From: an uncultured Planctomycetota bacterium
Lineage (GTDB): Bacteria; Planctomycetota; Brocadiia; CAIUPP01
Direction: 5' to 3'
Length of the DNA: 64,000 bases
NCBI GenBank assembly: GCA_903901045.1
Contig: CAIUPP010000061.1
Span: forward strand, 38,374 to 102,373
Every line of letters begins with the position of its first letter. The first letter of the stretch is position 1. The translations under genes were made by a program, and so were the position numbers. The notes under the pieces are model-generated. The model saw nothing but the letters and a program-made list of their open reading frames with translations. It made no database searches and was not told the DNA's origin. Positions 3,088-56,778 of this stretch are shown in pieces.

Positions 3088-4061
3088 CCGGCATCCTCCT
3101 GCTGATCGCGCTGAGCATCCTGCTGGCCGGCTTCTTCGCCGGGGCCGAGACGGGCGCCTACCGGCTCAACCGCATCCGCCTGCGCCAGGGGGCCGAAAGC
3201 GGCGCCTGGAGCGCCATCCTCCTCCACGGCATGGTCGGCCACATGGAGCGCTTCGTCTGCACGACCCTGACCGGCACGAACATCGCCGTATACGCCGCCA
3301 CGGCGCTGTGTACCTCCCTGCTCATCCCGCATTTCCAGAATCAATTATGGGCGGAACTGGGCAGCACGCTGATCCTCGCCCCCATCCTGCTGCTGCTGGC
3401 CGACGTGATCCCCAAGAGCCTCTTCCAGGTGCTTTCCGACCCGCTGATGCGCTGGGCCAGCCTGCCGCTCTGGATCGCGGACAAGCTGCTCTATCCCCTT
3501 TCCGCGCTGCTCCTGGTGATGCTGAGTTTCTGGCATAAGCTCCTCGGCGGGCGCGCCGACCCGCACCAGACGGTGGTCACCGCGCAGTTCCTGAGCAGCC
3601 AGCTTGCCGCCGGAACGCAGGATGGCGTGATCACCGCGCAGCAGGATATCGTCGTGCGCAACATCATGCAGTTGGGGACCCACAGCGTTCGCCGGGTGCT
3701 GGTGCCGCTGGAGAGCGTGAGCATGCTCTCGCTGGACGCCCCGCGCGACGAGGTGGTGCGCACGATGGCCGAGAACGACCACGAGCTCTACCCCGTATAC
3801 GAGGGGGGGCGCGAGAGCGTCGTGGGGATTGTCCAGGTGCTGGATTTCGTCTGCGAGGGATCGGACGCCCCGCTGGGCAATTTCGTCACCGAGCCGGTCT
3901 TCCTGCGGTCGGACCTGACGATGGATGACGCGTTCCGCCAGTTGCAGGAAGTGGACCAGACGATGGGGATCGTGGTGGACACGCGCGGCCGCGCACTGGG
4001 GATCGTCACGGTGGACGACCTGCTGCGCGAGCTCTTCAGCAGCCTGCGCCCGGCGCGGTGA
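3084..4061 (+). CDS. CNNM/CorC-family paralog (DUF21 + CBS), shorter, lacking CorC_HlyC tail
   Basis: ATG at 3084 overlaps the upstream stop (ATGA). Protein starts MTGILLLIALSILLAGFFAGAETGAY, the typical DUF21 N-terminus. Confidence 0.8.
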   Translation: MTGILLLIALSILLAGFFAGAETGAYRLNRIRLRQGAESGAWSAILLHGMVGHMERFVCTTLTGTNIAVYAATALCTSLLIPHFQNQLWAELGSTLILAPILLLLADVIPKSLFQVLSDPLMRWASLPLWIADKLLYPLSALLLVMLSFWHKLLGGRADPHQTVVTAQFLSSQLAAGTQDGVITAQQDIVVRNIMQLGTHSVRRVLVPLESVSMLSLDAPRDEVVRTMAENDHELYPVYEGGRESVVGIVQVLDFVCEGSDAPLGNFVTEPVFLRSDLTMDDAFRQLQEVDQTMGIVVDTRGRALGIVTVDDLLRELFSSLRPAR

Positions 4062-5065: not shown

Positions 5066-5210
5066 AATGACGAATGACGGAGGAAACAGCAAGTGCTGGA
5101 AACGTGTCGACCGATAGCTCGCCTGGTGGAGCGCGCTGTCCCAGCGCGCTGGGTTCCTGGAGCGACACGTTTTGCCTGGCACAAGCGCGCTCGGAGAGCG
5201 CGCTCCACCA

Positions 5211-6527
5211 TCACCGTTCCGCCCGGAATCGCTTCCCCCTGAGAATATGATGGTAGTGAACCGCGAACCGGTGCGCTTCATCCCGGACGTATTGGAGGAT
5301 CAGCAGCGCGGGGTTGTTGCGGCGCAGGCGCAGCTCGCGCGGCGGCTGGCCGAAGTAGAGCAGTTCCTCGCGCTTGGCCAGCGCCACGATGCACGCGGGC
5401 CGGATGCCCACCTCCGCCAGCGCGTCGGTCGCCGCCTGAAGCTGCCCCCTGCCTCCGTCGATCAGGAGGATGTCTGGCAGGGGGGCCTGCTCCTCGGCGA
5501 GGCGGCGGAAGCGCCGCGCGACCACCTCGCCGATCGAGGCGAAGTCGTTCAGCCCCTCCACCGTCTTGATCCGGAAACGGCGGTAGCCGGACTTGAAGGG
5601 GCGGCCATCCACGAACGTGACGAGGGAGGCGACCGAGTCGCTCCCGCCGAGGGTGGAGATATCCACCCCCTCGATGGCGCGCGGGAGCGCCGTCAATTCC
5701 AGCACGCGCTGCAACTCCGCGAGCCCCTTTGCGGCGTCCATCTCCGGCGGGAGGGTCGCCTCGGGAAAGAAGTCGAACGACCCGCGCTTGCCCAGCGCCT
5801 CGAAGGCTCTGATCTGGTCGCGCACCTGGCCGGCCTTTTCGAATTCCAGCCGCTTGGAGAGCTCCGCCATCCGGCTTTCCAGGTCGCGCAGCACGCGCTT
5901 GCGCTTGCCATCCAGGAAACGCTGAAGCAGTTCGATCTGCCTAAGGTACTCCTCGCGCGAAACGCGGTCGGCGCAGGGGGCCGTGCAGCGGCTGAGGTGA
6001 TAGAGCAGGCAGGGGCGCTCGAAGCGGCGCTTCACGTCGTCGGCGCGGATGGGGCGCGAGCAGGTGCAGAACTTGAAGACGCGCTGGAGCAGTTGCACCG
6101 CCTGGCGCAGGCCGCGCGCGTCGGTGAAGGGGCCGTAATACTTGCTCTTGCGGTTATCGCGCTGGCGGGTGACGAAGACGCGCGGAAAGTCGTCGCCGCG
6201 CGTGATCTCCAGGTAGGGGTAGAGCTTGCTATCGCGCAGGTCGGCGTTGTACTTGGGCTGGAGGTCCTTGATGAGGCGCGCCTCCATGAGCAGCGCGTCC
6301 ACCTCGGATTCGGCGGGGATCACCTCGAAGTCCGCCACCTGCGGCATCATGGCGGCGATCTGCGGGCGCTCGTCAGAACGCGCCTCCTGGAAGTAGCTGC
6401 CCACGCGGTCGCGCAGGGCGTTGGCCTTCCCCACGTAAAGCACCGCCCCGCGGGCGTTCTTCATGAGGTAAACGCCGGGAGTACGAGGCAAGGCGGCGGC
6501 TTTTTTTTTCAGGTCGTCAGGAGTCAT
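5211..6527 (-). CDS. uvrC: UvrC-like excinuclease (GIY-YIG + UvrC RNaseH-like domains), short form without C-terminal (HhH)2
   Basis: GIY-YIG motif GVYLMKNARGAVLYVGKANALRDRVGSYF plus UvrC central and endonuclease regions. ~438 aa versus ~600 aa for canonical UvrC. Confidence 0.75.
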   Translation of the reverse strand: MTPDDLKKKAAALPRTPGVYLMKNARGAVLYVGKANALRDRVGSYFQEARSDERPQIAAMMPQVADFEVIPAESEVDALLMEARLIKDLQPKYNADLRDSKLYPYLEITRGDDFPRVFVTRQRDNRKSKYYGPFTDARGLRQAVQLLQRVFKFCTCSRPIRADDVKRRFERPCLLYHLSRCTAPCADRVSREEYLRQIELLQRFLDGKRKRVLRDLESRMAELSKRLEFEKAGQVRDQIRAFEALGKRGSFDFFPEATLPPEMDAAKGLAELQRVLELTALPRAIEGVDISTLGGSDSVASLVTFVDGRPFKSGYRRFRIKTVEGLNDFASIGEVVARRFRRLAEEQAPLPDILLIDGGRGQLQAATDALAEVGIRPACIVALAKREELLYFGQPPRELRLRRNNPALLILQYVRDEAHRFAVHYHHILRGKRFRAER

Positions 6528-6540
6528 GGCTGTGAACGGA

Positions 6541-6680
6541 TTCAACTTTCAACATCCGACGTCCAACGTCCAACATTCAACGAACAACAAAAGAACGCCG
6601 CGCGCGGAACGTTGTTGTTTGTTGCCGTTACTTGAACGTTGAAAGTTGAACGTTGGATGTTGGACGTTGAATCCGTTGTC
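6541..6680. repeat. near-perfect ~65-bp-arm hairpin built from tandem heptamers (TTCAACG-type), 11-nt GC loop
   Basis: TTCAACTTTCAACATCCGACGTCCAACGTCCAACATTCAACGAACAACAA mirrors its reverse complement after the GCCGCGCGCGG loop. Confidence 0.75.
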
Positions 6681-6683
6681 GTT

Positions 6684-7154
6684 CTACCGAGGCATCTCGA
6701 ATTCCTGCTCGGGATGTCTCACGCTGAGCACCGGGCAGGGAGCTTTGCGGACCACTTTCTCCGCGACGGAACCGAACAGGGCGTGCTTGATGCCGCTGCG
6801 CCCGTGCGTGCCGCAGACGATCAGGTCCGCCTCGATCTCCTGCGCGCAGCGGATGATTTCGAGGAAGGGCGCCCCTTTGCGGATGAGATACTCCACCTTG
6901 AGCCGCGCGCGCACGTCGGCGGGGAGCAGTTCCTGCAGCGCCTTGTTCGCCTGCTTCTCGATGTCCGCCATGAGCTGCGCGAGGGGGGGCGTTTGAAGCA
7001 TGTCGAAGTAGAGCGCGCTGGAAATTTCCTCGATGACGTGGAGGATGACCAGTTTCGCGCTGAACTCATCCGACATGGAGATGGCGTACTTCATGGCGTG
7101 CTTGGACGGCTCCGAGAAGTCCGTCGGGTGGAGGATGGTTTTCATCTTGATCAT
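6684..7154 (-). CDS. universal stress protein (UspA family)
   Basis: 156 aa with Usp fold motifs (ILHVIE...GTHGRSG...GSVAEKV). Confidence 0.85.
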   Translation of the reverse strand: MIKMKTILHPTDFSEPSKHAMKYAISMSDEFSAKLVILHVIEEISSALYFDMLQTPPLAQLMADIEKQANKALQELLPADVRARLKVEYLIRKGAPFLEIIRCAQEIEADLIVCGTHGRSGIKHALFGSVAEKVVRKAPCPVLSVRHPEQEFEMPR

Positions 7155-7330
7155 TGCGCGCTTCCTTTCGCAAGAACCCTGCGTTGGGCGCCATGTCTGC
7201 CGTATATCATAACATCATAAGCGATGGATGCTTCCGACGCCAGCGCGGAATCGGCTCCGCGGTGCGGCGTTCCATCCCCGCGGAGCATCGCAAAGAGGCC
7301 CGCGTTTATGCGTCATTGCGAGGACTCCGC

Positions 7331-8134
7331 CTACGGCGTTGCTTTCTCCGCCGGTTTCGCCTCAGATGGCTTCTGGCGCGTCTGCTGCTCCGGCGTGGCG
7401 GGGGGCAGGCGGCTGGCCGAGAGCATGCTGATCAGCGCTTCGGTTATGTCGCGCGGCGCCAGCGACTCCGGGAACTTCAGTTTGAAGTCGTTGGGGTCTA
7501 TGGCGATCCCGGAGCGAACGTCGGAGTAGGTCACTTTCAGAAATGTCGCGCCGTTCGGGTCGTCCAACTCGACGTGCCGCACCATGCCATCGGCCGGGCA
7601 GAGCCAGAAGCGCACCTTCGCCGGCTCGGGGAGCCAGAGCGCGACATTGGCCGGGAGCGAGAGCCGCCCCCGCGGCAGGTCCGCCTGGTAGCGCGTCACG
7701 GCGATGCCATCCAGCGTCCCTTCCCCCAGGCTGACGGCGCGCCCGTCGGTGAGCAGGCTGCGGTAAGCGCGGGGGTCGTAGGTGAGGACCGGGTCGTACC
7801 CCGGCATCGCCTTGTGCACGCGCTCCAGGTCCACCGTCACCGCGCGACGCCCGTCGGGCCCTTGCTCGATCTGCCGGACCATGAGCCCGTCGCTGGCGAT
7901 GGTCAATGTGCTTTGCTGCTCCTTGGGACTGCTGAGCGTCATCGTCCCTTCCACGCGGAACTGGCGGTCGCCGAGGAATTTGGCCTGGTAGTCCGTCGCG
8001 GCGTTCAGCTTGCCCACCGTCATTTCCTGGCGGATGCGCGCGGTGAAGCCGGTCGCATCCGCCGGCGCGGCGGAGGCCACGCACGCAAGCCCCATCATCA
8101 GCCCGGCGGCATAAAGGAACCCTCGCGGCCTCAT
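7331..8134 (-). CDS. secreted hypothetical protein (signal peptide; possibly LolA-like fold), last gene of tad-associated cluster
   Basis: N-terminal MRPRGFLYAAGLMMGLACVASAAPA signal peptide. No confident family assignment. Confidence 0.45.
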   Translation of the reverse strand: MRPRGFLYAAGLMMGLACVASAAPADATGFTARIRQEMTVGKLNAATDYQAKFLGDRQFRVEGTMTLSSPKEQQSTLTIASDGLMVRQIEQGPDGRRAVTVDLERVHKAMPGYDPVLTYDPRAYRSLLTDGRAVSLGEGTLDGIAVTRYQADLPRGRLSLPANVALWLPEPAKVRFWLCPADGMVRHVELDDPNGATFLKVTYSDVRSGIAIDPNDFKLKFPESLAPRDITEALISMLSASRLPPATPEQQTRQKPSEAKPAEKATP

Positions 8135-11790: not shown

Positions 11791-11792
11791 AG

Positions 11793-12310
11793 AATTGATA
11801 AGTGATGAGTGATGAATGTTGATTGATAATTGGTCATTGTTCGGCCTATTCCTGGCAAGACGTGACTGTGCGCACGGGGGCCCGATAGTTCGCCGTCTTC
11901 GAAGAGGCAACGCAGATCGCCGTCAACTCACCGACTTCCCGCAAGAGGCCCTCCATGCGTTTGGCCGGAATCATTTCAGCCGCCGCAATCAGGCGCAGCC
12001 AGTACTGGGCCTCGCGCAATTCTTTGACGACGATCTGCAGCTTGTGCGCAAAATCTCTCTTGCTCTCCGCGCCGCACGCTTCGCTGTAATTTGCCCCCGC
12101 AGAAGTGGCCGCGCGGAAAAGCTGAAGACTTACGTGCTGCGCCAGCGATGTTTTCGGCAGGGCCGAGGCAAGTCCGTAGGTTCGCGCGCCGAATCGAAGG
12201 AACCTCTCGCACAACTCCCTGCTATTCATCATCCCCTCGCCAACATGATAATTGTCGTTCTCCTGCTCCAATTATCAATCATCACTTATCACTCATCCAT
12301 TATCAATTCT
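11793..12310. repeat. cassette A: four-helix-bundle gene bracketed by ~40-bp inverted repeats made of tandem heptamers (GTGATGA/TTGATAA units)
   Basis: Left arm AATTGATAAGTGATGAGTGATGAATGTTGATTGATAATTG (~11793-11836). The reverse complement of the right arm (~12270-12310) is GAATTGATAATGGATGAGTGATAAGTGATGATTGATAATTG. Confidence 0.8.
11846..12232 (-). CDS. four-helix-bundle protein, '23S rRNA intervening-sequence protein' family (TIGR02436/PF05635-like), copy A
   Basis: Family core ATSAGANYSEACGAESKRDFAHKLQIVVKELREAQYWLRL; paralogous to copies B-D. Confidence 0.8.
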   Translation of the reverse strand: MMNSRELCERFLRFGARTYGLASALPKTSLAQHVSLQLFRAATSAGANYSEACGAESKRDFAHKLQIVVKELREAQYWLRLIAAAEMIPAKRMEGLLREVGELTAICVASSKTANYRAPVRTVTSCQE

Positions 12311-16727: not shown

Positions 16728-17233
16728 TGCATTTCCTCCTTGGGGCCCGCTGCGGCGGGACCCCGGTTGGGGACGGAGGCCTGGCGCATGAGGGTGACGG
16801 CTGAGCCGCCTCCTGCGCCCGCCTCGACGATGCTTATGATACACCAACTGCCGGTAGGGTCTGCAAATGTCAGGGGCATCCCGCCGGGCTCCTCCATCAT
16901 GCCCGGCAAGCGTTGCGTTGTCCAGCCCCGCGCGGGCATTTCATGCCTGTAGAACTCCGCGACCGCGTCGGCGGACTCGCGGCTGACGTAGCGAACCAAT
17001 ACGCGCCCCGAGCCCGGCGCGGAGTTCAGGATGCCGGCCAGTTGCGATTCCGGCGGCGCGGGGATGTTCTCCAGCGCCCGCCCCGCCCTGCCCGTTGCCC
17101 CGCGCTCCACAATTGCGGGCAATAATCCGTAATGGCCGATGGCGAAAGACAAGGCTACGATAAGCCCGGCGCCTGCAAGACGGAAAACGATTTCTGACTT
17201 CTGATTCCTGAATTCTGATTTCTGATTTGCCAT
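16724..17233 (-). CDS. hypothetical small membrane protein; N-terminus (MANQKSEFRNQKSEI) encoded by heptamer-repeat arm
   Basis: 169 aa with one TM helix. Overlaps cpaB start by 4 nt. The first 15 codons are the TTCTGAT tandem repeat. Confidence 0.4.
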   Translation of the reverse strand: MANQKSEFRNQKSEIVFRLAGAGLIVALSFAIGHYGLLPAIVERGATGRAGRALENIPAPPESQLAGILNSAPGSGRVLVRYVSRESADAVAEFYRHEMPARGWTTQRLPGMMEEPGGMPLTFADPTGSWCIISIVEAGAGGGSAVTLMRQASVPNRGPAAAGPKEEMQ

Positions 17234-17702
17234 GTTTCACATGCTACGTTGACAATTCGTCCTGTCTGAGTGAGTCCGCATTCTTCCGCGACTTGTACGT
17301 GGTGACCGCGGCGACGAAGATACGGATCAACTGGTCTGCCTCGTCGAGCATCCCGGTCAGACGCTTTGCGGGCAAGAGTCCGGCTTCGGCTATCAGCCGC
17401 AGCCAATACTCGCTCTCGCGCAATTCCTTCAAAGATATCTGCATCTTGTGAAGGAAATCCTGGCGGCTTTCCGCCCCTGACGCCTCACAGTAGTTTGCCC
17501 CGGCGGAGGTGGCGGCCCGCATGAGTTGAAGGCCGACATGCCGCCCCGTGGCCGACTTGGTCAGCGCATTTGCCACATGAATACTTCGGACTCCGAATTG
17601 CAGCAGCCTCCGGTTCAAGTCGTGCTTGTCCATGCTGTGCGCTCCCGATGAAACCTCACACTGCTCTCCGCCCGAGGCACAAATCAGAACTCAGAAATCG
17701 TT
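17186..17702. repeat. cassette B: four-helix-bundle gene bracketed by inverted heptamer-repeat arms (TTCTGAT units)
   Basis: Left arm CGATTTCTGACTTCTGATTCCTGAATTCTGATTTCTGATTTG. Right arm reverse complement is AACGATTTCTGAGTTCTGATTTGTG (shorter arm). Confidence 0.75.
17244..17633 (-). CDS. four-helix-bundle protein, 23S-IVS-protein family, copy B
   Basis: Family core ATSAGANYCEASGAESRQDFLHKMQISLKELRESEYWLRL. Confidence 0.8.
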   Translation of the reverse strand: MDKHDLNRRLLQFGVRSIHVANALTKSATGRHVGLQLMRAATSAGANYCEASGAESRQDFLHKMQISLKELRESEYWLRLIAEAGLLPAKRLTGMLDEADQLIRIFVAAVTTYKSRKNADSLRQDELST

Positions 17703-18721
17703 TACCACCGTTTCCAAAGATTCTGCGTCGCATCATTCACCGCGGGCAGCGCGACGGCGCCAAGCAGGTCGGCGGCCTCTCCCAGCACCGCGGCGGAGGT
17801 GTGCCCTTGCTCGCCGGCGGCCAGCCGCGTTCCATTCCCCGTGACGTGGCCGGTCAGGTCCATCGTGAACTCCCACTGCGGGCGGCTCGTGGGGTTGGGG
17901 TACGTGCCGGTGATGTAATTTCCCAGCGTGGTGGGCGCCTCGTCCGTTGCCCGGAAGACGGAGGGGAAGTAGGGGGGGCTGTACGTGGCGCGCAGGTCCG
18001 CGTGGCGACGTTCGAGCCAGTGCGTGCCGCCGACGCCGTCGAAGGCGGATGCGATCCAGGCGGTGGTGTTGTCGATGACCGGCGGAGTGGCCTCGTCGGC
18101 GGTTACGAACCCGCCGCCGAGCTCCACTCCACCAGCTAGAGGGTTCAAGTAATGTGCGGGGGAAAATTTGTCGCCATATTCCGTATTCGAGACTTCCGTG
18201 ATCCCCTTGACCGCGTCCCAGACGAAGCTCTGCGTGGTCACCCCCAGCGCGTAATTCCAGAGGCTGACGGCAAGCCGCTCGCGGTCGAACGTGTCCGGCT
18301 GGCCGCCCCCCATCAGGGGGCCGGTCGTCAATTGGGTGGGGATTTCCTGGCGGTAATAGTCGTCGAGCTGGCTTGAGAGCTCGGACGCCTCCAGCGTCAG
18401 GTCTCCCTGGGCGGCCGCCGTCTGGCCGCCGCTGACGGGGCGGACATTGTCCGGCGTCCCCCCGCCGGAGGGCCAGAGCTTCATCAGCAACAGGTCCGCC
18501 GGCTGAGCCGTGGGCATCCAGACGGCAAACGTCGCCGCCTTGACGGCGCGCTGCCGGGTCAGCGTCGCATAGCCGAAGTAAAGCACCCCCAGCACGATCA
18601 GCATGTACAGCGGCATGACCAGCGCGGTTTCGACCATCGCCGTTCCGCGGAGCGAACGACAACGGCGAGCGTAGAGTGTAGAGTGCAGAGTGATGAGTGT
18701 AGAGCTATTCATTTTTCTCAT
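17702..18721 (-). CDS. tadE: TadE/TadG-like pseudopilin with long repeat-encoded leader
   Basis: Contains RGTAMVETALVMPLYMLIVLGVL (class-III signal / TadE-like N-terminus). Leader residues STLITLHSTLY are encoded by the GTAGAGT repeat arm. Confidence 0.7.
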   Translation of the reverse strand: MRKMNSSTLITLHSTLYARRCRSLRGTAMVETALVMPLYMLIVLGVLYFGYATLTRQRAVKAATFAVWMPTAQPADLLLMKLWPSGGGTPDNVRPVSGGQTAAAQGDLTLEASELSSQLDDYYRQEIPTQLTTGPLMGGGQPDTFDRERLAVSLWNYALGVTTQSFVWDAVKGITEVSNTEYGDKFSPAHYLNPLAGGVELGGGFVTADEATPPVIDNTTAWIASAFDGVGGTHWLERRHADLRATYSPPYFPSVFRATDEAPTTLGNYITGTYPNPTSRPQWEFTMDLTGHVTGNGTRLAAGEQGHTSAAVLGEAADLLGAVALPAVNDATQNLWKRW

Positions 18722-19167
18722 GGGCCATGTTCCTCTTCACAGTTACGACAGATCGGACCGCCATGGCGGTTAACTCACTGCATTCCCGCAAGGCGCCGTC
18801 GAGTTGTGCCGGCGGCAACAAACGGCTCTCCCTGGCAAGAGTCAGCCAGTAGTCCGTTTCGCGCAGTTCTTTGATGACAACCTGCAGCTTATGCACGAAA
18901 TCCGCACGGCTCTCAGCGCCCTTTGCCTCCCTGTAATTTGCCCCAGCCGACGTGCCCGACCGTAGCACCTGCTTGGCAATCACTCTGCCAGCCATGGTCT
19001 TGGGCATAGCCTGCGTAAGGCGAATCACCTCGATAGCGTAGGCCAGCAGGCGCTTGTCCAGCATGCCCTCACGTTCTGCCATCGCCATAACTCCCCGCTC
19101 AGGTCCTTGTCCTCGTCCTTGTTCACTCTGCATTCATCGCTCTGCACTCTACACTCTACGCTCGCCG
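18665..19167. repeat. cassette C: four-helix-bundle gene bracketed by inverted heptamer-repeat arms (GTAGAGT units)
   Basis: Left arm GGCGAGCGTAGAGTGTAGAGTGCAGAGTGATGAGTGTAGAGC. Right arm reverse complement is GGCGAGCGTAGAGTGTAGAGTGCAGAGCGATGAATGCAGAGTGA. Confidence 0.8.
18705..19088 (-). CDS. four-helix-bundle protein, 23S-IVS-protein family, copy C
   Basis: Family core RSGTSAGANYREAKGAESRADFVHKLQVVIKELRETDYWLTL. The 3' end overlaps the tadE-like start by 17 nt. Confidence 0.8.
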   Translation of the reverse strand: MAMAEREGMLDKRLLAYAIEVIRLTQAMPKTMAGRVIAKQVLRSGTSAGANYREAKGAESRADFVHKLQVVIKELRETDYWLTLARESRLLPPAQLDGALRECSELTAMAVRSVVTVKRNMAHEKNE

Positions 19168-21738
19168 TTAATGTTCCACCACATCGCTCATCTGCCTATT
19201 CCCATAGTCGAGAACCGGCGTGATCGGCTTGCCGTACTCGTCGCGGCGCTGGCTCATCTGGCGCATCTTGAGGGCGATGCTGGGGTCTCCCTGCCCGTTG
19301 AATTGGGTGGCCCAGCCGCTTGAATCGTAGCCGGAGGCGAACTGCGCGCTGAGCACCGTATCCCACAGGTAGGAGAGGGCGTTTTCGGTTTCGAGCGTGA
19401 TCGCCTGCCCCTGAATGATCTCGTCATCCAGGTCGTAATCCTGCATCTGATCGCGCGAGGGATAGAGCTTTGCCGTCGCGCCCGCCATGTACAGATTGTT
19501 CGGGTCCTGCTCGACCCAGTTTGCTCGATCCGCCTTGCCGCCGAACTGGTACCGCGTTCCGCCGCCGTCGTCCGGAACGCCCACGCGCGAGCAGGAGATG
19601 GCGACGTACCCCCAGGGCGGCTGTAGCGCCTGCGGGAAGAGCATGGGGAGGTCGGGTTGCTTGTAGACTCCGACATTGACGCCATACTTGAAGAACTCAT
19701 CCGTCAGCACCAAGGGGTATCCGGCCGGTGCCGCGGGGGCGTTGCGGAGAATGTAGGAATCGTACCGGTGAACGCGGCTGTCCAGAAAGTCGGTGTCCGT
19801 CCATCCACGCTGACCGTCGGTGATGGACAGATCATAGGAGCGCGGGTCCGGCGGGTTGATGCGACCGGAGGGGATATCCGCGATGAAGACCCGGATATCC
19901 GTGGCCCCGTCGCGGTTGTTATCGTAACCGCCGCAGACTTTACATACTTCCTTGTGCGTCCCCTGGTTGGGATCATTGGGATCGTTGGGGACATCCACAA
20001 CGCCGCTCCCGCCGCAGCCCAAGGGAGGCTCCGGGCAGGGCTCCGTCTGGTAGTAGGCGTCCTCCGGAGGGTCCTCATTGGGCTGGAGGATCGCCAGGCT
20101 GCCGGGCGGACGCAGCGGATAGGTGTGCCGCCAGAACGGCTCGCGGGGACCCGCCGTGCCCGTATTGTCCGGGATCGGATTGAACCAGGCCGTCCACGCC
20201 GGCAGTTGGTTCCCGGAGATGCCGCGGTCGCCGAAGGCATGGGTGTAGACGTACCGATTCATATTCCTTTCGCGGGACAGCATCGCCCCGGAGGTCTCGT
20301 GATCGTATTGCCATTGCTTGAGTCCACCGTGCTCCGGGACCACTTCGGTAAGCTGCTGGCGCGACCAGACCTGCTCGGTCGGGTCGAACCACTTGCGCCA
20401 GCGGCCGTCCGCGTCACCGGCGGTGAGGCTGAACCCGCCCGCCGTGACGCTGAAGGAGTTCGGGTCGAAGCCGTGGACGCCGATCGTGACCGGGCCCAGA
20501 GTGGTCGAGATGGTCGGGGGGTCGCTCAAGGTCAAATGGGCGTGGCCGATGGTGACCTGGGTGGGGTCCCCGATGGTCGCGCTGGCGTCGCCGGGGAAGT
20601 GGATAACGTTGGTGACGTTCATCCGCACTTCCACCCCGGCGATCGTGGTCGTGTTGCTGGTCATGTCGGTGTAGGAGTGCGCGGCGTTGTCCCAGAGGTA
20701 CAGGTGGCCGTTGCCCGCGTTCTTGAAAGTCTGGGAAAGGTTGCCGCAGGTGACTTTCGTCCCCTCCTTGGTCCCGTCGCCGTCCATGTCCACTTTCTCG
20801 AAGGAGATAGTCGGCAGGGAGGGGCCGCCGTTCGCGGCCTGTCCCCAGACCACCCAGCCGAGGTCGTCGGTCTTGACCAGGTAAATCTCCTCGGTCAGCG
20901 CCCCGTTGGTGTAGAAGCTGATCTTCCAGCGGTTGGGGGATTCCTGGCTGATGATCACCTCGGTTTCGGTGACCCCTTCCAGGGAGTACAGGATGTGCCA
21001 CTGCCCGTCCACCAGCGTCACCTGGATCATCTCCTTGCTGCCGCCGGTGAGGTTGGTGACGCGCCAGCCGTTGCCCAGTTGCTCGATGCTGAAAGAGATG
21101 AGACTCTCCGGGTAAGGGAAGAGCCGCTGGCTGGGGAAGACGCTGAGGCGCTCTCCGCCGGCGCGCGTGCCGATGGCGAACATCTCCTCGGCGAGCAGGC
21201 GCGGGGTGAGGATGGCGACGGCGTTCTCCGTCTGCGAGAGCTGCACCATCAGGCTCTTGGCCTGCGGCAGGGCGGTGTTGGCGAGGTCCCATGCCTGCCG
21301 GTGCGCCATGACGGCCGGGCCGGAGGCAACGCCGCCGGTGCGGATCAGTTCCATGCGCGCGGCGACGCCGGTGACGTTCACATCCACGGCATACTTCAGC
21401 GAGTTGTAGTACGTCTGCGCCATGGCGCTGTTGATCCAGCCGATGGCGCTCAGGCTGTTCGCTTCCACCATCGCGCCGGAGTACGCCGCCGAGTCCGCCG
21501 CCACCTGCACCCGCGTGCGCCCCTCGATGATCCGCCCCAGGTTGTACACCAGCGCCACGAACCCCACCAGCACGATCAGGCTCGCCGCGGCGAAGATAAT
21601 CCCCTGGCCGCGCTCGTCGCGCAGGAAACGGCGAAAACTGAGAACTGAGAACTGGGAACTGAAAGTTGCGAAAGAACGGCCCCTCCGCGCCATAGCGCGG
21701 TGGACCGGAATCGGCTCGTTATTCTTGCATGCACTCAT
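19168..21738 (-). CDS. tadG: large TadG-like pilus-assembly/pseudopilin protein (856 aa)
   Basis: N-terminal RRFLRDERGQGIIFAAASLIVLVGFVALVYNLG (TadG N-terminal domain type). The leader contains repeat-encoded FSSQFSVLSF. Confidence 0.65.
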   Translation of the reverse strand: MSACKNNEPIPVHRAMARRGRSFATFSSQFSVLSFRRFLRDERGQGIIFAAASLIVLVGFVALVYNLGRIIEGRTRVQVAADSAAYSGAMVEANSLSAIGWINSAMAQTYYNSLKYAVDVNVTGVAARMELIRTGGVASGPAVMAHRQAWDLANTALPQAKSLMVQLSQTENAVAILTPRLLAEEMFAIGTRAGGERLSVFPSQRLFPYPESLISFSIEQLGNGWRVTNLTGGSKEMIQVTLVDGQWHILYSLEGVTETEVIISQESPNRWKISFYTNGALTEEIYLVKTDDLGWVVWGQAANGGPSLPTISFEKVDMDGDGTKEGTKVTCGNLSQTFKNAGNGHLYLWDNAAHSYTDMTSNTTTIAGVEVRMNVTNVIHFPGDASATIGDPTQVTIGHAHLTLSDPPTISTTLGPVTIGVHGFDPNSFSVTAGGFSLTAGDADGRWRKWFDPTEQVWSRQQLTEVVPEHGGLKQWQYDHETSGAMLSRERNMNRYVYTHAFGDRGISGNQLPAWTAWFNPIPDNTGTAGPREPFWRHTYPLRPPGSLAILQPNEDPPEDAYYQTEPCPEPPLGCGGSGVVDVPNDPNDPNQGTHKEVCKVCGGYDNNRDGATDIRVFIADIPSGRINPPDPRSYDLSITDGQRGWTDTDFLDSRVHRYDSYILRNAPAAPAGYPLVLTDEFFKYGVNVGVYKQPDLPMLFPQALQPPWGYVAISCSRVGVPDDGGGTRYQFGGKADRANWVEQDPNNLYMAGATAKLYPSRDQMQDYDLDDEIIQGQAITLETENALSYLWDTVLSAQFASGYDSSGWATQFNGQGDPSIALKMRQMSQRRDEYGKPITPVLDYGNRQMSDVVEH

Positions 21739-21815
21739 GGTATTGTTACCTCAATCTCAACATCGCGCCATCTTTCAGTTCTCAGTCTTCAGTCTTCAGT
21801 CTTCAATTCTCGCCG
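21630..21815. repeat. 'empty' heptamer inverted-repeat pair (GAGAACT units) whose ~105-bp loop holds only the tadE-stop/tadG-start junction
   Basis: Left arm GGCGAAAACTGAGAACTGAGAACTGGGAACTGAAAG. Right arm reverse complement is GGCGAGAATTGAAGACTGAAGACTGAAGACTGAGAACTGAAA. Confidence 0.7.
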
Positions 21816-21822
21816 TCCTTCA

Positions 21823-22407
21823 TCACTCGCCCCACGGATGCGCCAGCACGCAACTGCCGGTCATCAGCCAGTGCGCCGCGCCTCCCCACTTCGAGCGGTC
21901 CACGTCGAGGCCGGGGGTCAGGTCGCCCAGCGCGTAGAGGGCGTCGCCGGCGATTGGCACATTCAATTCGTAGTCATGCGATACGTCGGCGTGGATCACC
22001 GGCTGGCCGTTGACCGAATCGGGGTAGACGTTGACGTCGGTCTTCAGTTCCGCCGCGGCGCTGCCGGGGAGCGTCCCCCAGCCGGGCAGGGTGATGGTGT
22101 CGTTGGCGACGACGCCGGAAGTTCCCGTGATGCGGCTCAGCGGGATCAGCGCCGCGCGCTTGCAGGCGGTCGGGTCGATCGCCGGCGACTGCGCCAGCCC
22201 CGCGCGCGCCGCGCAAAAAGCGCTGTACTCGATCACCTGCTGCGCGATGAACAGATGGGCCAGTTGAATGATGACCAGCGTGATCAGCAGTTGGAGCGGG
22301 AAGATGATGGCGTATTCAACCAGCGCCTGCCCCGACTCCGCGCGGGCGGCGCGGCGAGAACTGAAAACTGAGAACTGAAAACTGAGAACTGAGAGTTGGC
22401 GGTTCAT
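21823..22407 (-). CDS. tadE: TadE-like pseudopilin
   Basis: RRAARAESGQALVEYAIIFPLQLLITLVIIQ is a TadE N-terminus. Leader MNRQLSVLSFQFSVFSS is encoded by the repeat arm. Confidence 0.75.
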   Translation of the reverse strand: MNRQLSVLSFQFSVFSSRRAARAESGQALVEYAIIFPLQLLITLVIIQLAHLFIAQQVIEYSAFCAARAGLAQSPAIDPTACKRAALIPLSRITGTSGVVANDTITLPGWGTLPGSAAAELKTDVNVYPDSVNGQPVIHADVSHDYELNVPIAGDALYALGDLTPGLDVDRSKWGGAAHWLMTGSCVLAHPWGE

Positions 22408-22824
22408 CGCGCAGCTCCTTTGTTCGACTTCGCCGTCACCACGGACTTCACGCCTATGGAGATCAGTTCATTCACCTCACTGGCAATGCCGTCCAGGCGA
22501 GCCGGCTTCAACAAATGGGCGTTGCGGCAAAGCTCAATCCAATAGAGCGTCTCGCGCAGTTCTTTCACTACAATCTGCATCTTGTGCGCAAAGTCGGCGC
22601 GACTCTCGGCGCATCTCGCCTCGCAGTAGTTGGCGCCAGGCGACGTGCCGGATCGCAGCAATTGCAGTCCCACATGCCGCCCCGCCGCCGTCTTGGGCAG
22701 CGCGTTCGTCATCGCGATGACCCTCACGGCCAGTTCTTGCAGGCGCTCACCATAATTGCCGCTCTGCGCCACGTTTTATCCTCTCAGTTCTCAGTCTTCA
22801 GTTCTCAGTTTTCAGTTCTCGCCG
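22353..22824. repeat. cassette D: four-helix-bundle gene bracketed by inverted heptamer-repeat arms (GAGAACT units)
   Basis: Left arm GGCGAGAACTGAAAACTGAGAACTGAAAACTGAGAACTGAGAG. Right arm reverse complement is GGCGAGAACTGAAAACTGAGAACTGAAGACTGAGAACTGA. Confidence 0.8.
22404..22772 (-). CDS. four-helix-bundle protein, 23S-IVS-protein family, copy D
   Basis: Family core RSGTSPGANYCEARCAESRADFAHKMQIVVKELRETLYWIEL. GTG start. Confidence 0.8.
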   Translation of the reverse strand: MAQSGNYGERLQELAVRVIAMTNALPKTAAGRHVGLQLLRSGTSPGANYCEARCAESRADFAHKMQIVVKELRETLYWIELCRNAHLLKPARLDGIASEVNELISIGVKSVVTAKSNKGAAR

Positions 22825-23374: not shown

Positions 23375-23406
23375 AGATCAACCCACCTCAATGTTCCTGC
23401 GATAAT

Positions 23407-23456
23407 GTGGCGCGGGTTATCCAACCCGCGGTCATCGTGCGTTCATTCCGCTTTCG
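23407..23456. repeat. family-4 element copy a (GCGGGTTATCCAACCCGC hairpin + CATCGTGCGTTCATTCCG tail)
   Basis: GTGGCGCGGGTTATCCAACCCGCGGTCATCGTGCGTTCATTCCGCTTTCG. Confidence 0.7.
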
Positions 23457-23603
23457 TCTCTCGCGGGCCTGCGGCCCGCGCCATATCGGCTTCAAGACCG
23501 GAAGCCCCGCGCGCTCCACTTCAAACGAATAACTCCGACCGCTGCGGGCGCAGAGGCCGGAGTTATCCATGCGACAACGCCCGATCGGGCAGCGGACGCG
23601 CCG

Positions 23604-24327: not shown

Positions 24328-24437
24328 TGCGCCAGCACCCCCACGATGGCGCGCGCTTTCCCGCAAAAGCGCGGCGCCCTTCGCTGCCCCGATACAGCGA
24401 GCGGCCAGTCCGCGTCCCGCGCCGCAGGCGCGGGGAA

Positions 24438-24545
24438 AAGAAAGCGGAAAGAACGCACGCTGATTGCGGGTTTGATAACCCGCGCTACATCGGCCTCACG
24501 AACCGGAAGAACTGCACGGTAATCGCGGGTTGGATAACCCTCGCC
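24438..24545. repeat. family-4 element copies c and d (reverse orientation), tandem, upstream of flp genes
   Basis: Reverse complement of 24438-24490 is GTAGCGCGGGTTATCAAACCCGCAATCAGCGTGCGTTCTTTCCGCTTTC. 24500-24545 is a more diverged copy. Confidence 0.7.
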
Positions 24546-24558
24546 ACACCGCCTGCTT

Positions 24559-25113: not shown

Positions 25114-25274
25114 ACTTCTCCTCTTCCCTGCTGCGCCGATCTATTCACCGCGGAGGCGCGGAGAACGAACGACGCCGTCTTTCATCTCTCAGTTCTCAGT
25201 CTTCAGTTCTCAGTTCTCGCCGTCCTGCGCATCTCCGGGGTGAAAAGGGCAAACGCCCGTCTCGGAGAGAACGT

Positions 25275-25324
25275 GTAGCGCGGGTTATCAAACCCGCGAT
25301 CATTGTGCGTTCTTTCCGATTTCC
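25275..25324. repeat. family-4 element copy b, in the 268-bp spacer between fumarate hydratase alpha and beta genes
   Basis: GTAGCGCGGGTTATCAAACCCGCGATCATTGTGCGTTCTTTCCGATTTCC, preceded at 25185-25225 by a solo CTCAGTT heptamer-repeat arm. Confidence 0.7.
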
Positions 25325-25381
25325 TTTCCCCGCGCCTGTGGCGCGGGACGCGGACTTGATAGTCCGCGCTACATACGCGGC

Positions 25382-26293
25382 TCACAAGACGACTTCCGCA
25401 TGCCGATGGCTGTGGCAGTCCAGGTTGACGGCGACCGGCAGCGCCGCGAGGTGGCATGGGGCCGATGCAACGTGCACCGCCAGCGCTGTGACTTCCCCGC
25501 CCAGCCCCATCGGGCCGACCCCGGTGGCATTGATTTGAGTGAGCAGTTCGCGCTCCAGTTCGGCATCCAGCGCGTTGGCCGCCGGCTGGCCCAGCGGCCG
25601 CAGGAGCGACTCCTTGGCCAGCAGCGCGCATTTCTCGAAGTTTCCGCCGAGGCCCACCCCGACGATGACCGGCGGGCAGGGATTGCCCCCGGATTCGCGC
25701 ACGGCGCGCACGACGAACTCCACCACCCCCTCGCGCCCGGCCGAGGGGGGGAGCATCGCCAGGCGCGACATGTTCTCGCAGCCCCCGCCCTTGGCGGCGA
25801 AGAGAATGCGCAGGCGGTCGCCCGGGACGATGCGCGTGTGCAGGATGGCCGGCGCGTTCGTGCCGGTATTCCTGCGGGTGAGCGGGTGGTCGAGGATGCT
25901 CTTGCGCAGGTGGAAGCGGTTGGCGCCTTCGGCCACCGCCTGCTGAACCGCTTCGGCCAGGTCGCCGCCGGTGAGATGAAGCTCCTGCCCGATCTCCAGG
26001 AAGATCACGGAGACGCCGGTATCCTGGCAGAGCGGCCGGCGCTCGGCCCGGGCGATTTCGGCGTTGTGCTGAAGGTCGGCCAGGATAGCGCGTCCGATGG
26101 CGCTGCTCTCGCGCGCCGCGGCGGCGGCCAGCGCCGCGCACTCCGCGCCGCCCAGGTCAAAAGTGGCCTGTTCGATCAGTCGCAGCAGCGCCGCCTGAAG
26201 CTCTTTCACCGGCAACTCGCGCACGGCGGACCCTCTCCGCAAAACGGGAAACCTGCCTGCACGATATGATAGCAGCTTGCCGCAGCGGTGCAA
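25382..26293 (-). CDS. class-I fumarate hydratase / tartrate dehydratase alpha subunit
   Basis: Fe-S-dependent hydrolyase alpha domain (CQDTGVSVIFLEIG..., HLRKSILDHPLTRRNTGTN..., FAAKGGGCENMS). Confidence 0.8.
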   Translation of the reverse strand: MHRCGKLLSYRAGRFPVLRRGSAVRELPVKELQAALLRLIEQATFDLGGAECAALAAAAARESSAIGRAILADLQHNAEIARAERRPLCQDTGVSVIFLEIGQELHLTGGDLAEAVQQAVAEGANRFHLRKSILDHPLTRRNTGTNAPAILHTRIVPGDRLRILFAAKGGGCENMSRLAMLPPSAGREGVVEFVVRAVRESGGNPCPPVIVGVGLGGNFEKCALLAKESLLRPLGQPAANALDAELERELLTQINATGVGPMGLGGEVTALAVHVASAPCHLAALPVAVNLDCHSHRHAEVVL

Positions 26294-26295
26294 CA

Positions 26296-26380
26296 GAAAC
26301 GAAAGGACCTAAAGGACTGCAAGGACAAAAAGGACCATGGATGTGTCCTTGCAGTCCTTGCAGTCCTTTAGGCCCTTCTT
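26296..26380. repeat. heptamer-periodic hairpin (AAGGAC units) between convergent genes
   Basis: GGACCTAAAGGACTGCAAGGACAAAAAGGACC / loop ATGGAT / GTGTCCTTGCAGTCCTTGCAGTCCTTTAGGCC. Confidence 0.65.
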
Positions 26381-35775: not shown

Positions 35776-35935
35776 CCGTGGGCTAGAGTCCGACGGCCGC
35801 TTCGCGGCCTAACAAGCAGAATGGGATGGTTTCTCCGGAGCATGCGGATTACGCGGTGCGCCCTGCGCACCTGTGAATTACGATTAGCAGGTTGGCCGAC
35901 CCCTCCAATGCAGCTCGTACCGCGGCGTCGTTCAC

Positions 35936-36846
35936 TTCGCAAATCGCCATTCGCAATTCGCTATTCGCCAATCATCCGTTCCGCAATTCATCCGCTAACC
36001 GCGGCAAGAAATATCCCCGCGCTGACGGCGACGTTCAGCGACTCCCCGGCCCCGCGGCTGGGGATCGTGTACCGCGCATCGGCCAGCGCCTGCAACTCCG
36101 GGGCGATCCCGTGCGCCTCGCTGCCCAGCAGCAGCGCCGCGCGGCTCGAACGCGCCCAGGCGCTCCACTCCGTCGCGCCGTCCATCGTCCCCGCGCCCAG
36201 CGCAAACCCCTGCCCCTTCAGCCGCGCCAGCGCCTCGGCCAGCGGCACGTCGCGGCAGACCGGCAGATGGAACATCCCGCCCATCGTCGCGCGCACCGTC
36301 TTGGGGTTGAGCAGGTCGGCGCTGCCGCGCCCCAGCAGCACGGCATCCACCCCGAACCACGCCGCCGTGCGGATCACCGTGCCCACATTCCCCGGGTCGC
36401 TCACGCTGTCCAGCGCCAGCGCCACCGCGCGCGGCCCGAACTTCAGGTCCGCCCAGCGCCGCTCCTGCCAGCGCGCCGCCGCCAGCAATCCCTGGCTGTG
36501 CACGGTGTCGCTGATTTTGTCGAACTCGAATTCGGCCGTCTCCAGGATGGGAATTTTCCGCTCCTCGAACTCCGCCGCCACGCGCCGCGCCGCGGAGTCC
36601 GCGAATTCGGAGAGCAGCAAAAACTCCACCGGCGCGCCGGAGTCCAGAAGCTCCTCGCACAGCCGCGCCCCCTCCACGGCGAAGAGTCCGCTCTCCTCGC
36701 GTCCCTTGCGGCTCCCCAGCCCGCGCGCCACCGCCAGTTGTCTCTTGGATGCTTTCATGCCCCTGAATATGACAGACGCGGCGCGGGACGTCAAGAACGA
36801 ATGATTTGCGAATTGCGATTACCGATTAGCGATTGGCGATTGGGAC
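35936..36846. repeat. heptamer inverted-repeat pair (AATCGCN/ATTCGCN units) bracketing the TrmH/SpoU methyltransferase gene
   Basis: Left arm AAATCGCCATTCGCAATTCGCTATTCGCCAATCATCCG. Right arm ATGATTTGCGAATTGCGATTACCGATTAGCGATTGGCGATTGGGACGG. Confidence 0.6.
35988..36758 (-). CDS. TrmH/SpoU-family RNA 2'-O-methyltransferase (RlmB-like)
   Basis: SpoU motifs (LDSVSDPGNVGTVIRTAAWFG, TIPSRGAGESLNVAVSAGIFL). ATG at ~36758. Confidence 0.85.
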   Translation of the reverse strand: MKASKRQLAVARGLGSRKGREESGLFAVEGARLCEELLDSGAPVEFLLLSEFADSAARRVAAEFEERKIPILETAEFEFDKISDTVHSQGLLAAARWQERRWADLKFGPRAVALALDSVSDPGNVGTVIRTAAWFGVDAVLLGRGSADLLNPKTVRATMGGMFHLPVCRDVPLAEALARLKGQGFALGAGTMDGATEWSAWARSSRAALLLGSEAHGIAPELQALADARYTIPSRGAGESLNVAVSAGIFLAAVSG

Positions 36847-51111: not shown

Positions 51112-51305
51112 GGTCCTCTCCTTATTGCCGTGGCTTTGCCAGGGGCCGACCGCCTCGGTCGCCGCTGACGCGTCCGGCGGTATTCTACGCTTCCGGCGCG
51201 AAATCGCAAGAAGAACTCCCCCTCCACTTGCGGCGGGCGCGGCGGTGGACTAAGCTATCCGGTCGACGGCGGATTTTTCCAGGATGGCCCAAACGGGAGA
51301 ATGAC

Positions 51306-55941: not shown

Positions 55942-56217
55942 ATGGTAGCGGATGTGCGCCTCCGCCGCAAGGAAGGCGGAGCGGGTTCTTTGCCCGGCCC
56001 GCTCGTTGTTTCCGGATCAAGCGCGCTGGGACAGCGCGCTCCACCATGCCACCGTCGCGTCCGATCTGCGGACTCGCACGTAGGCACGGGCTTTAGCCCG
56101 TGCGCCTGTGGGCGGGCGAGGGCCCGCCCCTACGCGCCAATGCGCCCCCCCCCCGCATGCTTGCATCCTCCGCCGCGCGGCGGTATCGTGTCGGCGGTTC
56201 AACAGAGCGAGGGCTCC

Positions 56218-56625: not shown

Positions 56626-56778
56626 GCACGGGAGGCCCGCAGGGGCAAGGCATCGGCCTGCCTTCCGACGAACGCGGGGGAGCTGGCCCGCGGAATGGTG
56701 GAGCGGGCTGTCCCAGCCCGCTCGTTGTTTCTGTCTGCAGCGCTGGGGACAGCGCGCACCACCACAGCGCACACGGCA

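Follow-up and report, generated by a model that had tools for sequence, protein, structure and literature searches.

A gene-less heptamer hairpin in the usp-uvrC spacer of a planctomycete and its probable kinship with intervening-sequence-like elements of protein-coding operons

We analysed a 64-kb stretch of DNA (64,000 nt, hereafter the window) from contig CAIUPP010000061.1 of an uncultured Planctomycetota bacterium (assembly GCA_903901045.1), in which the genes for a universal stress protein (usp) and for UvrC follow each other on the minus strand and are separated by a hairpin built from tandem heptamers at 6535-6677 (Table 1). The hairpin occupies 143 of the 156 nt of the usp-uvrC spacer. 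On the transcribed strand, the TAG of usp is followed by 6 nt, AACGGA, the heptamers, an inner palindrome, the mirrored array, TCCGTT, 7 nt and the ATG of uvrC, confirming the original prediction, made from the bare sequence, that the structure lies just past the usp stop codon and ahead of the uvrC start codon. A promoter and terminator scan of positions 6000-7400 gave no promoter-like site and no terminator-like match at the hairpin. Rfam 15 identified no rRNA and nothing relevant in the window, either at gathering thresholds or permissively; the permissive scan returned only chance-level matches to miRNA hairpins, far under their gathering scores. The start call of uvrC is unstable beside the hairpin: the mechanical open reading frame (ORF) begins at a TTG inside the 3' arm (6545), and gene callers have the gene begin 63 nt farther downstream than the ATG at 6527, trimming the N-terminus of the GIY-YIG domain (compare L001:3691). 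No helix-hairpin-helix domain was detected in the short UvrC product (438 aa).

Table 1. Coordinates of the usp-uvrC hairpin, its two neighbouring genes and the other heptamer elements of the window.
Feature	Coordinates	Strand	Remarks
usp, upstream gene	6684..7154	minus	Universal stress protein; PF00582, E = 2e-33; TAG stop codon 6684-6686
5' arm of hairpin	6622..6677	minus (transcribed strand)	6 nt past usp stop codon
Hairpin interior	6591..6621	minus	Inner AACAACAA/TTGTTGTT quasi-palindrome and GC palindrome
3' arm of hairpin	6535..6590	minus	Ends 7 nt ahead of uvrC ATG
uvrC, downstream gene	5211..6527	minus	438 aa; GIY-YIG, UVR and UvrC_RNaseH domains; ATG 6525-6527
Sibling element, TGATAAG/AATTGAT arms	11791..12310	minus	Arms 11791-11833 and 12268-12310 (88% complementary); encloses IVP gene 11846-12232
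Sibling element, GATTTCT arms	17188..17702	minus	Arm 17188-17235 and short arm ~17680-17702; encloses IVP gene 17244-17633
Sibling element, GAGTGTA arms	18654..19176	minus	Arms 18654-18704 and 19126-19176 (88% complementary); encloses IVP gene 18705-19088
Second gene-less hairpin, AACTGAG/GARRACT units	21623..21815	minus	96 nt between arms; between TadE and TadG-like genes
Sibling element, AACTGAG arms	22352..22824	minus	Arms 22352-22395 and 22781-22824 (98% complementary); encloses IVP gene 22404-22772
Orphan AACTGAG-type array	25173..25222	minus	5'-arm polarity; between two fumarate hydratase subunit genes
Inverted TTCGCAA/AATCGCC arrays	35932..36845	minus	Arrays 35932-35976 and 36802-36845; bracket SpoU/TrmH RNA methyltransferase gene 35988-36794, not an IVP gene

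The inverted repeat consists of two arms of 56 nt each, 31 nt apart. Their ungapped complementarity is 80%, and the minimum-energy fold of 6535-6677 contains several internal loops and bulges, so that the earlier descriptions of a near-perfect hairpin and, as RNA, of a long perfect duplex were overstated for what is an imperfect stem. On the minus strand the 5' arm begins with AACGGA, continues through the units TTCAACG TCCAACA TCCAACG TTCAACT TTCAACG TTCAAGT and closes with AACGGCAAC, and the 3' arm carries the mirrored array (..TTGAATG TTGGACG TTGGACG TCGGATG TTGAAAG TTGAATC CGTT), which ends in TCCGTT. The heptamers quoted in the original prediction (TTCAACT TTCAACA TCCGACG TCCAACG TCCAACA TTCAACG AACAACA) are indeed present on the plus strand at 6541-6589. 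Each arm, previously given as about 65 bp of heptamers, holds about six units (~42-49 nt), and its inner part is a separate AACAACAA-type quasi-palindrome. This AACAACAA/TTGTTGTT quasi-palindrome has its arms at 6578-6590 and 6612-6624, and the hairpin centre is a perfect 10-nt GC palindrome, CCGCGCGCGG, at 6598-6607. As the supposed 11-nt GC loop contains this palindrome, the real loop shrinks to about 4 nt. The 31-nt interior holds no ORF.

Both arms have period 7 according to Tandem Repeats Finder and a GC content of 40-42% in a window of 66% GC. The window contains 17 matches to TTCAACGTTCAACG with at most three mismatches, where 2.7 would be expected, and 13 of them fall in 6541-6671; the TTCAACG unit is restricted to this single locus in the window. 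RNA of the minus strand folds at -73.1 kcal/mol versus -43.4 +/- 3.9 kcal/mol for shuffled sequences (z = -7.6, with none of 200 shuffles as good), which bears out the prediction of a real, heptamer-built hairpin between the two genes. An assembly artefact such as a collapsed palindrome, raised earlier as a possible objection, is ruled out because the hairpin is base-for-base identical in three independently assembled contigs (an ENA scaffold, a JGI contig and an ENA k141 contig) and a relative whose UvrC is 92% identical (L085) has an orthologous version. A fourth metagenome contig terminates within the hairpin.

Period 7 dominates the short-period tandem repeats of the window, which contains 13 AT-rich period-7 arrays (28-53% GC) with differing units, mostly arranged as inverted pairs. 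Four of the pairs each enclose a small minus-strand gene (Table 1). Three of the four products match Pfam PF05635 ('23S rRNA-intervening sequence protein', hereafter intervening-sequence protein, IVP) with E values of 1e-14 to 1e-18, two of these three also match TIGR02436 ('four helix bundle protein'), and the fourth gene was placed by alignment. The window IVPs are 43-50% identical to the first of the four, and their combined profile matches PDB 2RLD (five chains). The original prediction had likened the usp-uvrC hairpin to the gene-bracketing heptamer pairs of the window, and the shared architecture is supported. What it had not seen was the identity of the bracketed genes as PF05635 '23S rRNA intervening-sequence protein' genes, belonging to a cross-phylum family of elements with gene-less members. 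No IVP gene with TTCAACG arms occurs in the window.

All elements of the window lie between or beside minus-strand genes, mostly in the Tad pilus operon, and a clamp of the form AACGG(CGA)...(TCG)CCGTT recurs in four of the seven, as a local feature only. The orphan array at 25173-25222 is 82% complementary to the array at 22352-22401, 2.8 kb off. Parts of these elements are coding: the stop codon of one IVP gene overlaps the ATG of TadE (22405-22407), and the 3' arm encodes the TadE leader MNRQLSVLSFQFSVFSS; the start codon of the TadG-like gene sits in the loop of the hairpin at 21623-21815, and its leader (arm region 21623-21766) contains FSSQFSVLSF.

A scan of the IVP alignment against one genome per species yielded 548 relatives, of which the best 80 loci were studied; these are the closest relatives of the window IVPs rather than a random sample of PF05635, and the taxonomy of the bins may be wrong. 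They span Planctomycetota, Verrucomicrobiota, Acidobacteriota, Bacteroidota, Armatimonadota, WOR-3, Cloacimonadota, Deltaproteobacteria-type lineages and even archaeal bins. Among the periods 4-12 tested, period 7 was best in 127 of 151 IVP flanks versus 35 of 313 control windows taken at these loci, and strong arrays (at least 22 of 28 matches) numbered 62 in IVP flanks versus 10 in controls. The unit of the upstream arm, most commonly AAAATGC or AAATTGC, reappears in the downstream arm once the latter is reverse-complemented, and about 50 loci have clearly complementary arms. Where the flanks were callable by third-position GC content (GC3), the neighbouring gene was on the IVP strand in 19 of 19 cases upstream and 21 of 22 downstream. 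Read along the sense strand of the IVP gene, A outnumbers T and purines outnumber pyrimidines in the 5' arm of 25 of 29 cassettes, a count weakened by shared ancestry. In its full-length form the element has a PF05635/TIGR02436 gene between its arms; the product is the protein known from 23S rRNA intervening sequences as 'S23p/IVP', and it is related to the Avd protein of diversity-generating retroelements. Such elements sit sense-oriented in operon spacers and are found in helices of rRNA as well; sometimes one lies within an ORF and keeps its frame.

IVP identities of 73-77% occur between Acidobacteriota and Planctomycetota bins, with arm units that match or differ at a single position. Because IVPs of different phyla with this identity share the same or nearly the same arm unit, whole cassettes, arms included, appear to move between phyla. 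No IVP relatives were found in viral contigs, considered here as a transfer vehicle.

Further gene-less heptamer hairpins, with 1-95 nt between the arms, are present at L008 (between atpD and atpC), L022, L046, L075, L086 and L102. They extend exactly from stop codon to start codon in L008 and L075, the one in L086 likewise separates a stop from a start codon, and the one in L022 ends just ahead of a start codon, the only one of the two codons seen there. Such stop-to-start placements recur in other phyla. In L102, which carries a distant uvrC homologue (45% identity), a GGCTATC/GGCTTTC hairpin at 3504-3595 lies in frame within uvrC, where it lengthens the product by 30 residues, placed between RRLAE and PDLLLLDGG, and leaves the reading frame open. 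The same locus has a second hairpin at 951-1085. Heptamer pairs also bracket housekeeping genes in planctomycete ATP synthase operons, namely atpC (L042:3111-3596 and L065:2107-2835) and atpD (L008:3365-4958).

Several features place the usp-uvrC hairpin within this family. Its two inverted arrays repeat one heptamer unit about 5-8 times each and are richer in AT than the genome, and it fills the spacer between co-directional genes from after the stop codon to before the start codon. Its heptamer unit and polarity are shared with a gene-bearing cassette: among all fetched loci, YCAACRY arrays were found only at the usp-uvrC site, at the orthologous site of L085 and in the arms of an IVP cassette in L058 (Verrucomicrobiae), and the YCAACRY 5' arm is on the transcribed strand in all three. 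As its short interior has no ORF, we file the hairpin as a gene-less derivative or relative, and it very probably belongs to the family of intervening-sequence (IVS)-like heptamer-array elements as a gene-less member.

Five metagenomic relatives with usp beside uvrC (L085-L089) were compared at the orthologous site. The closest, L085 (92% UvrC identity), has the same TTCAACG hairpin with four units instead of six in the 5' arm and a changed interior. In L086 (89% UvrC identity), the same site holds a hairpin of another heptamer, TGCAGAA, with about eight units per arm and an interior of about 90 nt. The usp-uvrC spacers of L087-L089 (64-66%) are 50-171 nt long and have no heptamer array. The cassettes and units of the Tad operon recur in L127, an 86% relative, where the units are present in differing numbers, the gene-less hairpin is duplicated and a further TGCAGAA array is present. 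In a 62% relative (L129), CpaA abuts TadE with no cassette between them, and the TadE leader is unrelated in sequence and similar in length. A 58% relative (L130) has an IVP gene at the Tad site without clear arrays. Among named homologues of the CpaA protein, the nearest comes from a Candidatus Brocadiia and is 52% identical. The differences among relatives at the usp-uvrC and Tad sites show that, within the time in which genera diverge, the elements come and go, replace one another and are remodelled.

Two further observations concern these relatives. TGCAGAA occurs in the 86-89% relative, represented by loci of the same JGI metagenome, both in the usp-uvrC hairpin (L086:2294-2496) and in an orphan Tad array (L127:1414-1465) that adjoins an AACTGAG cassette, and therefore forms one unit family at unlinked sites of one genome. 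Additionally, the core of a diversity-generating retroelement (bAvd and reverse transcriptase; L130:1880-3408) lies 6 kb from the Tad-operon IVP gene, a nearness that is probably a coincidence.

The explanation we favour, and regard as moderately probable, is that the usp-uvrC hairpin is a gene-less, IVS-like selfish palindromic element that is co-transcribed with its operon and probably cut by RNase III. Its architecture, the family link by unit and polarity, the placement rules, the turnover at orthologous sites and the change in unit number are all read from compared sequences. In the proposed sequence of events, insertion or turnover of the element in this lineage's usp-uvrC spacer took place at the level of DNA, as the relatives show, and its heptamer arrays gain and lose units by slippage, a step that the comparison with relatives also brings out. 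The stem may outlast such unit changes without compensatory mutation, because arrays would pair with inverted arrays of the same unit in several registers. The hairpin would then be co-transcribed with usp and uvrC and form an imperfect RNA stem of about 55 bp with its base 7 nt from the uvrC AUG, as suggested by the geometry and by the absence of a promoter or terminator signal; the spacers of relatives, as short as 50 nt, make usp-uvrC look like one transcription unit. In the last and least certain step, RNase III would cut the long duplex. This step is proposed by analogy with IVP-bearing rRNA intervening sequences and with the Correia elements of Neisseria, and for the usp-uvrC stem itself we put it forward tentatively, as a possibility somewhat short of even. 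Cleavage would uncouple the usp and uvrC cistrons, setting the 5' end of the uvrC message and the access of ribosomes to it. On balance, the element may be 'operon punctuation' that is for the most part selfish or close to neutral, and uvrC expression may be affected as a by-product.

A number of results weigh against this explanation. In about 50 cassette stems (~1,750 aligned positions), 42 G.U pairs stand against 42 A.C pairs on the sense strand, with no excess of G.U, and the sense and antisense RNAs of the usp-uvrC hairpin fold equally well (-73.1 versus -71.3 kcal/mol); there is therefore no sign of selection on RNA rather than DNA. No compensatory substitutions were found between the window arms and their orthologues in L085 and L127, which differ by whole units and by uncompensated point changes. 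Neither a target-site duplication nor a terminal motif conserved across phyla was found, and no transposase or reverse transcriptase was found with the elements, so that mobility would have to proceed without a known mechanism. Judged by the window's IVP paralogues, which are only 43-50% identical, there has been no recent transposition in this genome. The sibling 3' arms are translated as TadE and TadG-like leaders, and the hairpin of the L102 uvrC is in frame. RNase III cleavage is thus not a universal fate of the elements, because cutting a translated arm or an in-frame hairpin would destroy those messages; heptamer elements tolerate, or exploit, coding contexts. The usp-uvrC hairpin also encloses no PF05635/TIGR02436 gene. 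A six-frame reading of the interiors of the window, L085 and L086 hairpins gave no recognisable remnant of an IVP gene, and an origin by deletion from a gene-bearing cassette is therefore not established.

There is a rival account, fairly unlikely in our view, in which a heptamer simple sequence repeat (SSR) expanded in situ by slippage and acquired its inverted copy by an intra-strand template switch. The hairpin would then be immobile and functionless, and its link to IVP cassettes would merely reflect shared slippage-prone, AT-rich spacers. Such an origin fits elements that each have their own heptamer, with no target-site duplication or conserved terminus, and unit numbers that vary between arms and between relatives. 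The lack of G.U bias and of compensatory changes is what DNA copying of the arms would predict. Heptamers are also the top class of long SSRs in many bacteria and are ascribed to slippage (Mrazek 2007, as summarised in PMC4679880). However, expansion in situ leaves unexplained why period-7 arrays flank IVP genes across phyla at 127 of 151 sides, why cassettes with 73-77% identical IVPs in different phyla have the same or nearly the same unit, and why the heptamer class and polarity of the usp-uvrC hairpin recur in the IVP cassette of L058. The occurrence of two unrelated heptamer hairpins in one spacer at 89-92% identity is likewise left without an explanation.

We consider it unlikely that the heptamer arrays are the cognate sites of IVP/Avd-like pentameric rings, which would make IVP cassettes and gene-less hairpins a single protein-RNA or protein-DNA system, horizontally mobile and genome-wide, for the punctuation and regulation of operons. 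In this scheme a pentameric IVP ring would bind the arrays, perhaps one unit per subunit, with RNA or single-stranded DNA wrapping around it, and gene-less hairpins would serve as trans targets through which IVP paralogues regulate neighbours such as uvrC. Avd relatives bind nucleic acids together with the reverse transcriptase of diversity-generating retroelements, which counts in its favour. Homologues form homopentameric rings, as in the five chains of PDB 2RLD and in Xcc0516 (a homopentamer as cited in PMC4990558), and the arms have 5-8 units. The A and purine excess of the 5' arm in 25 of 29 cassettes would fit as well. Overall, two IVPs with the same unit are 65.5% identical, versus 52.7% where the units differ at two or more positions; same-unit pairs, however, are as low as 42% identical and different-unit pairs as high as 75%. 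The correlation exists, but co-inheritance alone predicts and accounts for it, and a specificity of IVPs for heptamers was rejected on this ground. Arm length shows no preference for five units, the window has no IVP whose arms are of the TTCAACG type, and S23p is reportedly not made in Coxiella (PMC4990558). If the arrays were IVP sites after all, this would cover much of the bacterial heptamer excess and the origin of rRNA intervening sequences.

A transcription terminator or attenuator separating usp from uvrC is very unlikely, even with a very stable hairpin straight after the stop codon. No U-tract follows the stem on either strand and the scan gave no match at the hairpin, which excludes an intrinsic (Rho-independent) terminator, in line with the original prediction; the hairpin also lies inside an apparent usp-uvrC transcription unit. 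Terminator stems are shorter by a factor of 4-5, nothing promoter-like for uvrC occurs downstream of the hairpin, relatives have a usp-uvrC spacer of 50 nt, and sibling hairpins include both the start codon and the leader codons of the gene that follows. Least of all do we credit a role as DNA structure (a cruciform, replication-fork obstacle or recombination hotspot): the symmetrical hairpin folds equally in both strands, with stems free of G.U bias, its single-stranded DNA folds at -40.5 kcal/mol (z = -4.9) and one contig ends inside it, but arms matched at 80% and a GC-rich centre do not favour extrusion, the hairpin is stably inherited in the 92% relative, and the strict co-orientation of cassettes with transcription points to a constraint at the transcript level. 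Nothing testable singles out the strong cruciform or replication obstacle proposed earlier, although the lack of strand asymmetry leaves behaviour at the DNA level a small probability.

The window contains other repeats besides the heptamer elements. Period 9 is the only other enriched period and comes largely from a collagen-like Gly-X-Y coding repeat at 50464-50662, a long GCGCCGGTC-type repeat with periodicities of 9, 18 and 27 nt within the minus-strand ORF 49006-51249, whose product looks collagen-like. A hairpin of like design built from nonamers (AAGGACNNN) lies at 26303-26377, between the minus-strand gene 26394-28025 and the gene for the fumarate hydratase alpha subunit (25382-26308); its arms of 33 nt are 88% complementary and 9 nt apart. 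A separate family of ~50-83-nt repeats (GTGTAGCGCGGGTTATCAAACCCGCGATCATTGTGCGTTC...) is found at 23405-23460, 24407-24490, 24501-24549 and 25273-25356, with copies facing either way around the genes for Flp pilin and fumarate hydratase beta, and one pair is 93% complementary over 83 nt. GC-rich palindromes resembling repetitive extragenic palindromic (REP) sequences and sharing GGTGGAGCGCGCTGTCCCAGCGCGCT occur at 5124-5210, 56020-56050 and 56692-56722 and form a family distinct from the heptamer elements.

PF05635/TIGR02436 is a very abundant, Avd-related family named after the rRNA intervening sequences found in the early 1990s, and to our knowledge it has no known function. Our results indicate that its genes travel in a stereotyped cassette of inverted heptamer arrays, that these cassettes are sense-oriented inside ordinary operons of many phyla, and that gene-less versions persist between, and sometimes inside, genes. 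The roughly 30-year puzzle of rRNA intervening sequences is thereby tied to ordinary protein-coding operons, which sets three old questions in a common testable frame: how rRNA intervening sequences arose, what IVPs do and why heptamers are in excess in bacteria. On the practical side, the arrays break assemblies and shift gene-start calls, and hairpin arms are read as protein leaders. A habit of inserting into operons would also be a simpler account of the IVP genes reported as 'CRISPR-associated' in cas operons, for example between cmr3 and cmr2 (PMC3936711).

The closest comparison is with rRNA intervening sequences themselves. Both have terminal inverted repeats that form a long stem, both exist in forms with an ORF and without one (ORF-less in Salmonella, Yersinia and Campylobacter), and the PF05635 genes of the window siblings correspond to those of ORF-bearing intervening sequences in Leptospira and Coxiella burnetii. 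A sporadic distribution, apparent horizontal transfer and AT-richness relative to the host genome are also common to the two. The 23S intervening sequence of C. burnetii carries S23p, of the same gene family, lies between inverted repeats and is cut out by RNase III. Ahead of its ORF stand 2-3 tandem GACAGAT heptamers, the first of which is the site of the 5' cut; strains differ in the number of heptamers, and in one strain a deletion has removed 176 bp from the ORF (PMC4990558). Tandem heptamers of variable copy number in the stem region are therefore a further likeness. Unlike rRNA intervening sequences, however, the usp-uvrC hairpin lies between protein-coding genes and not in an rRNA helix, both of its arms are almost wholly heptamer arrays, and RNase III cleavage would be expected here by analogy only. 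Sibling copies with a translated arm have no rRNA counterpart. The heptamer pairs that bracket housekeeping genes, for their part, resemble the processing stems that bracket 16S and 23S rRNA.

[quoted passage not shown] In Neisseria, the RNA hairpins of Correia elements (CREE/nemis) bind RNase III and are cleaved or protected, altering the expression of adjacent genes (PMC2649163). Correia elements have one conserved sequence, defined inverted termini, a TA target duplication and hundreds of near-identical copies, whereas the elements described here each have their own heptamer and tandem-repeat arms, with no target duplication or conserved terminus. A MITE or Correia-type identity was rejected, as no direct repeat flanks the hairpin and both termini and units differ between elements.

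Bacterial heptanucleotide repeats, including the cyanobacterial short tandemly repeated repetitive (STRR) sequences, share the intergenic position, the 2-40 tandem heptamers, often just upstream of start codons, and copy numbers that shift by 7-nt steps between strains. Direct arrays of the heptamer TAACTGA lie upstream of start codons in Beggiatoaceae, Cyanobacteria and Bacteroidetes, with a function that is unknown, in a study that also cites an overall bacterial surplus of heptamer repeats (PMC4679880). The Tad-operon elements in the window have RAACTGA units, one position away from TAACTGA. In contrast to the TAACTGA and STRR repeats, which are direct arrays with one inverted case noted and are not tied to IVP genes, the window arrays are inverted pairs that form hairpins or bracket a gene.

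The in-frame hairpin of the L102 uvrC and the translated 3' arms of the Tad operon recall the Rickettsia palindromic elements. These are said, following Ogata and colleagues in 2000, to be selfish and to tolerate in-frame insertion in protein genes as well as in spacers. They form families of conserved sequence restricted to Rickettsia and are not built from tandem heptamers. REP sequences and bacterial interspersed mosaic elements (BIMEs) are imperfect palindromes of 20-40 nt with a conserved GTAG/CGTC head and many copies; the usp-uvrC hairpin, with repeat-built arms of 56 nt and no such head, is not one of them. We found no literature linking IVP genes in general to flanking inverted heptamer arrays and none on gene-less heptamer hairpins in operons, which is weak evidence given the incomplete coverage; the papers that come nearest are those on the Coxiella intervening sequence and on the TAACTGA arrays. 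Relative to rRNA intervening sequences, MITEs and heptamer SSRs, what is new is an IVS-like element outside rRNA, with arms of tandem heptamers, in gene-bearing and gene-less forms.

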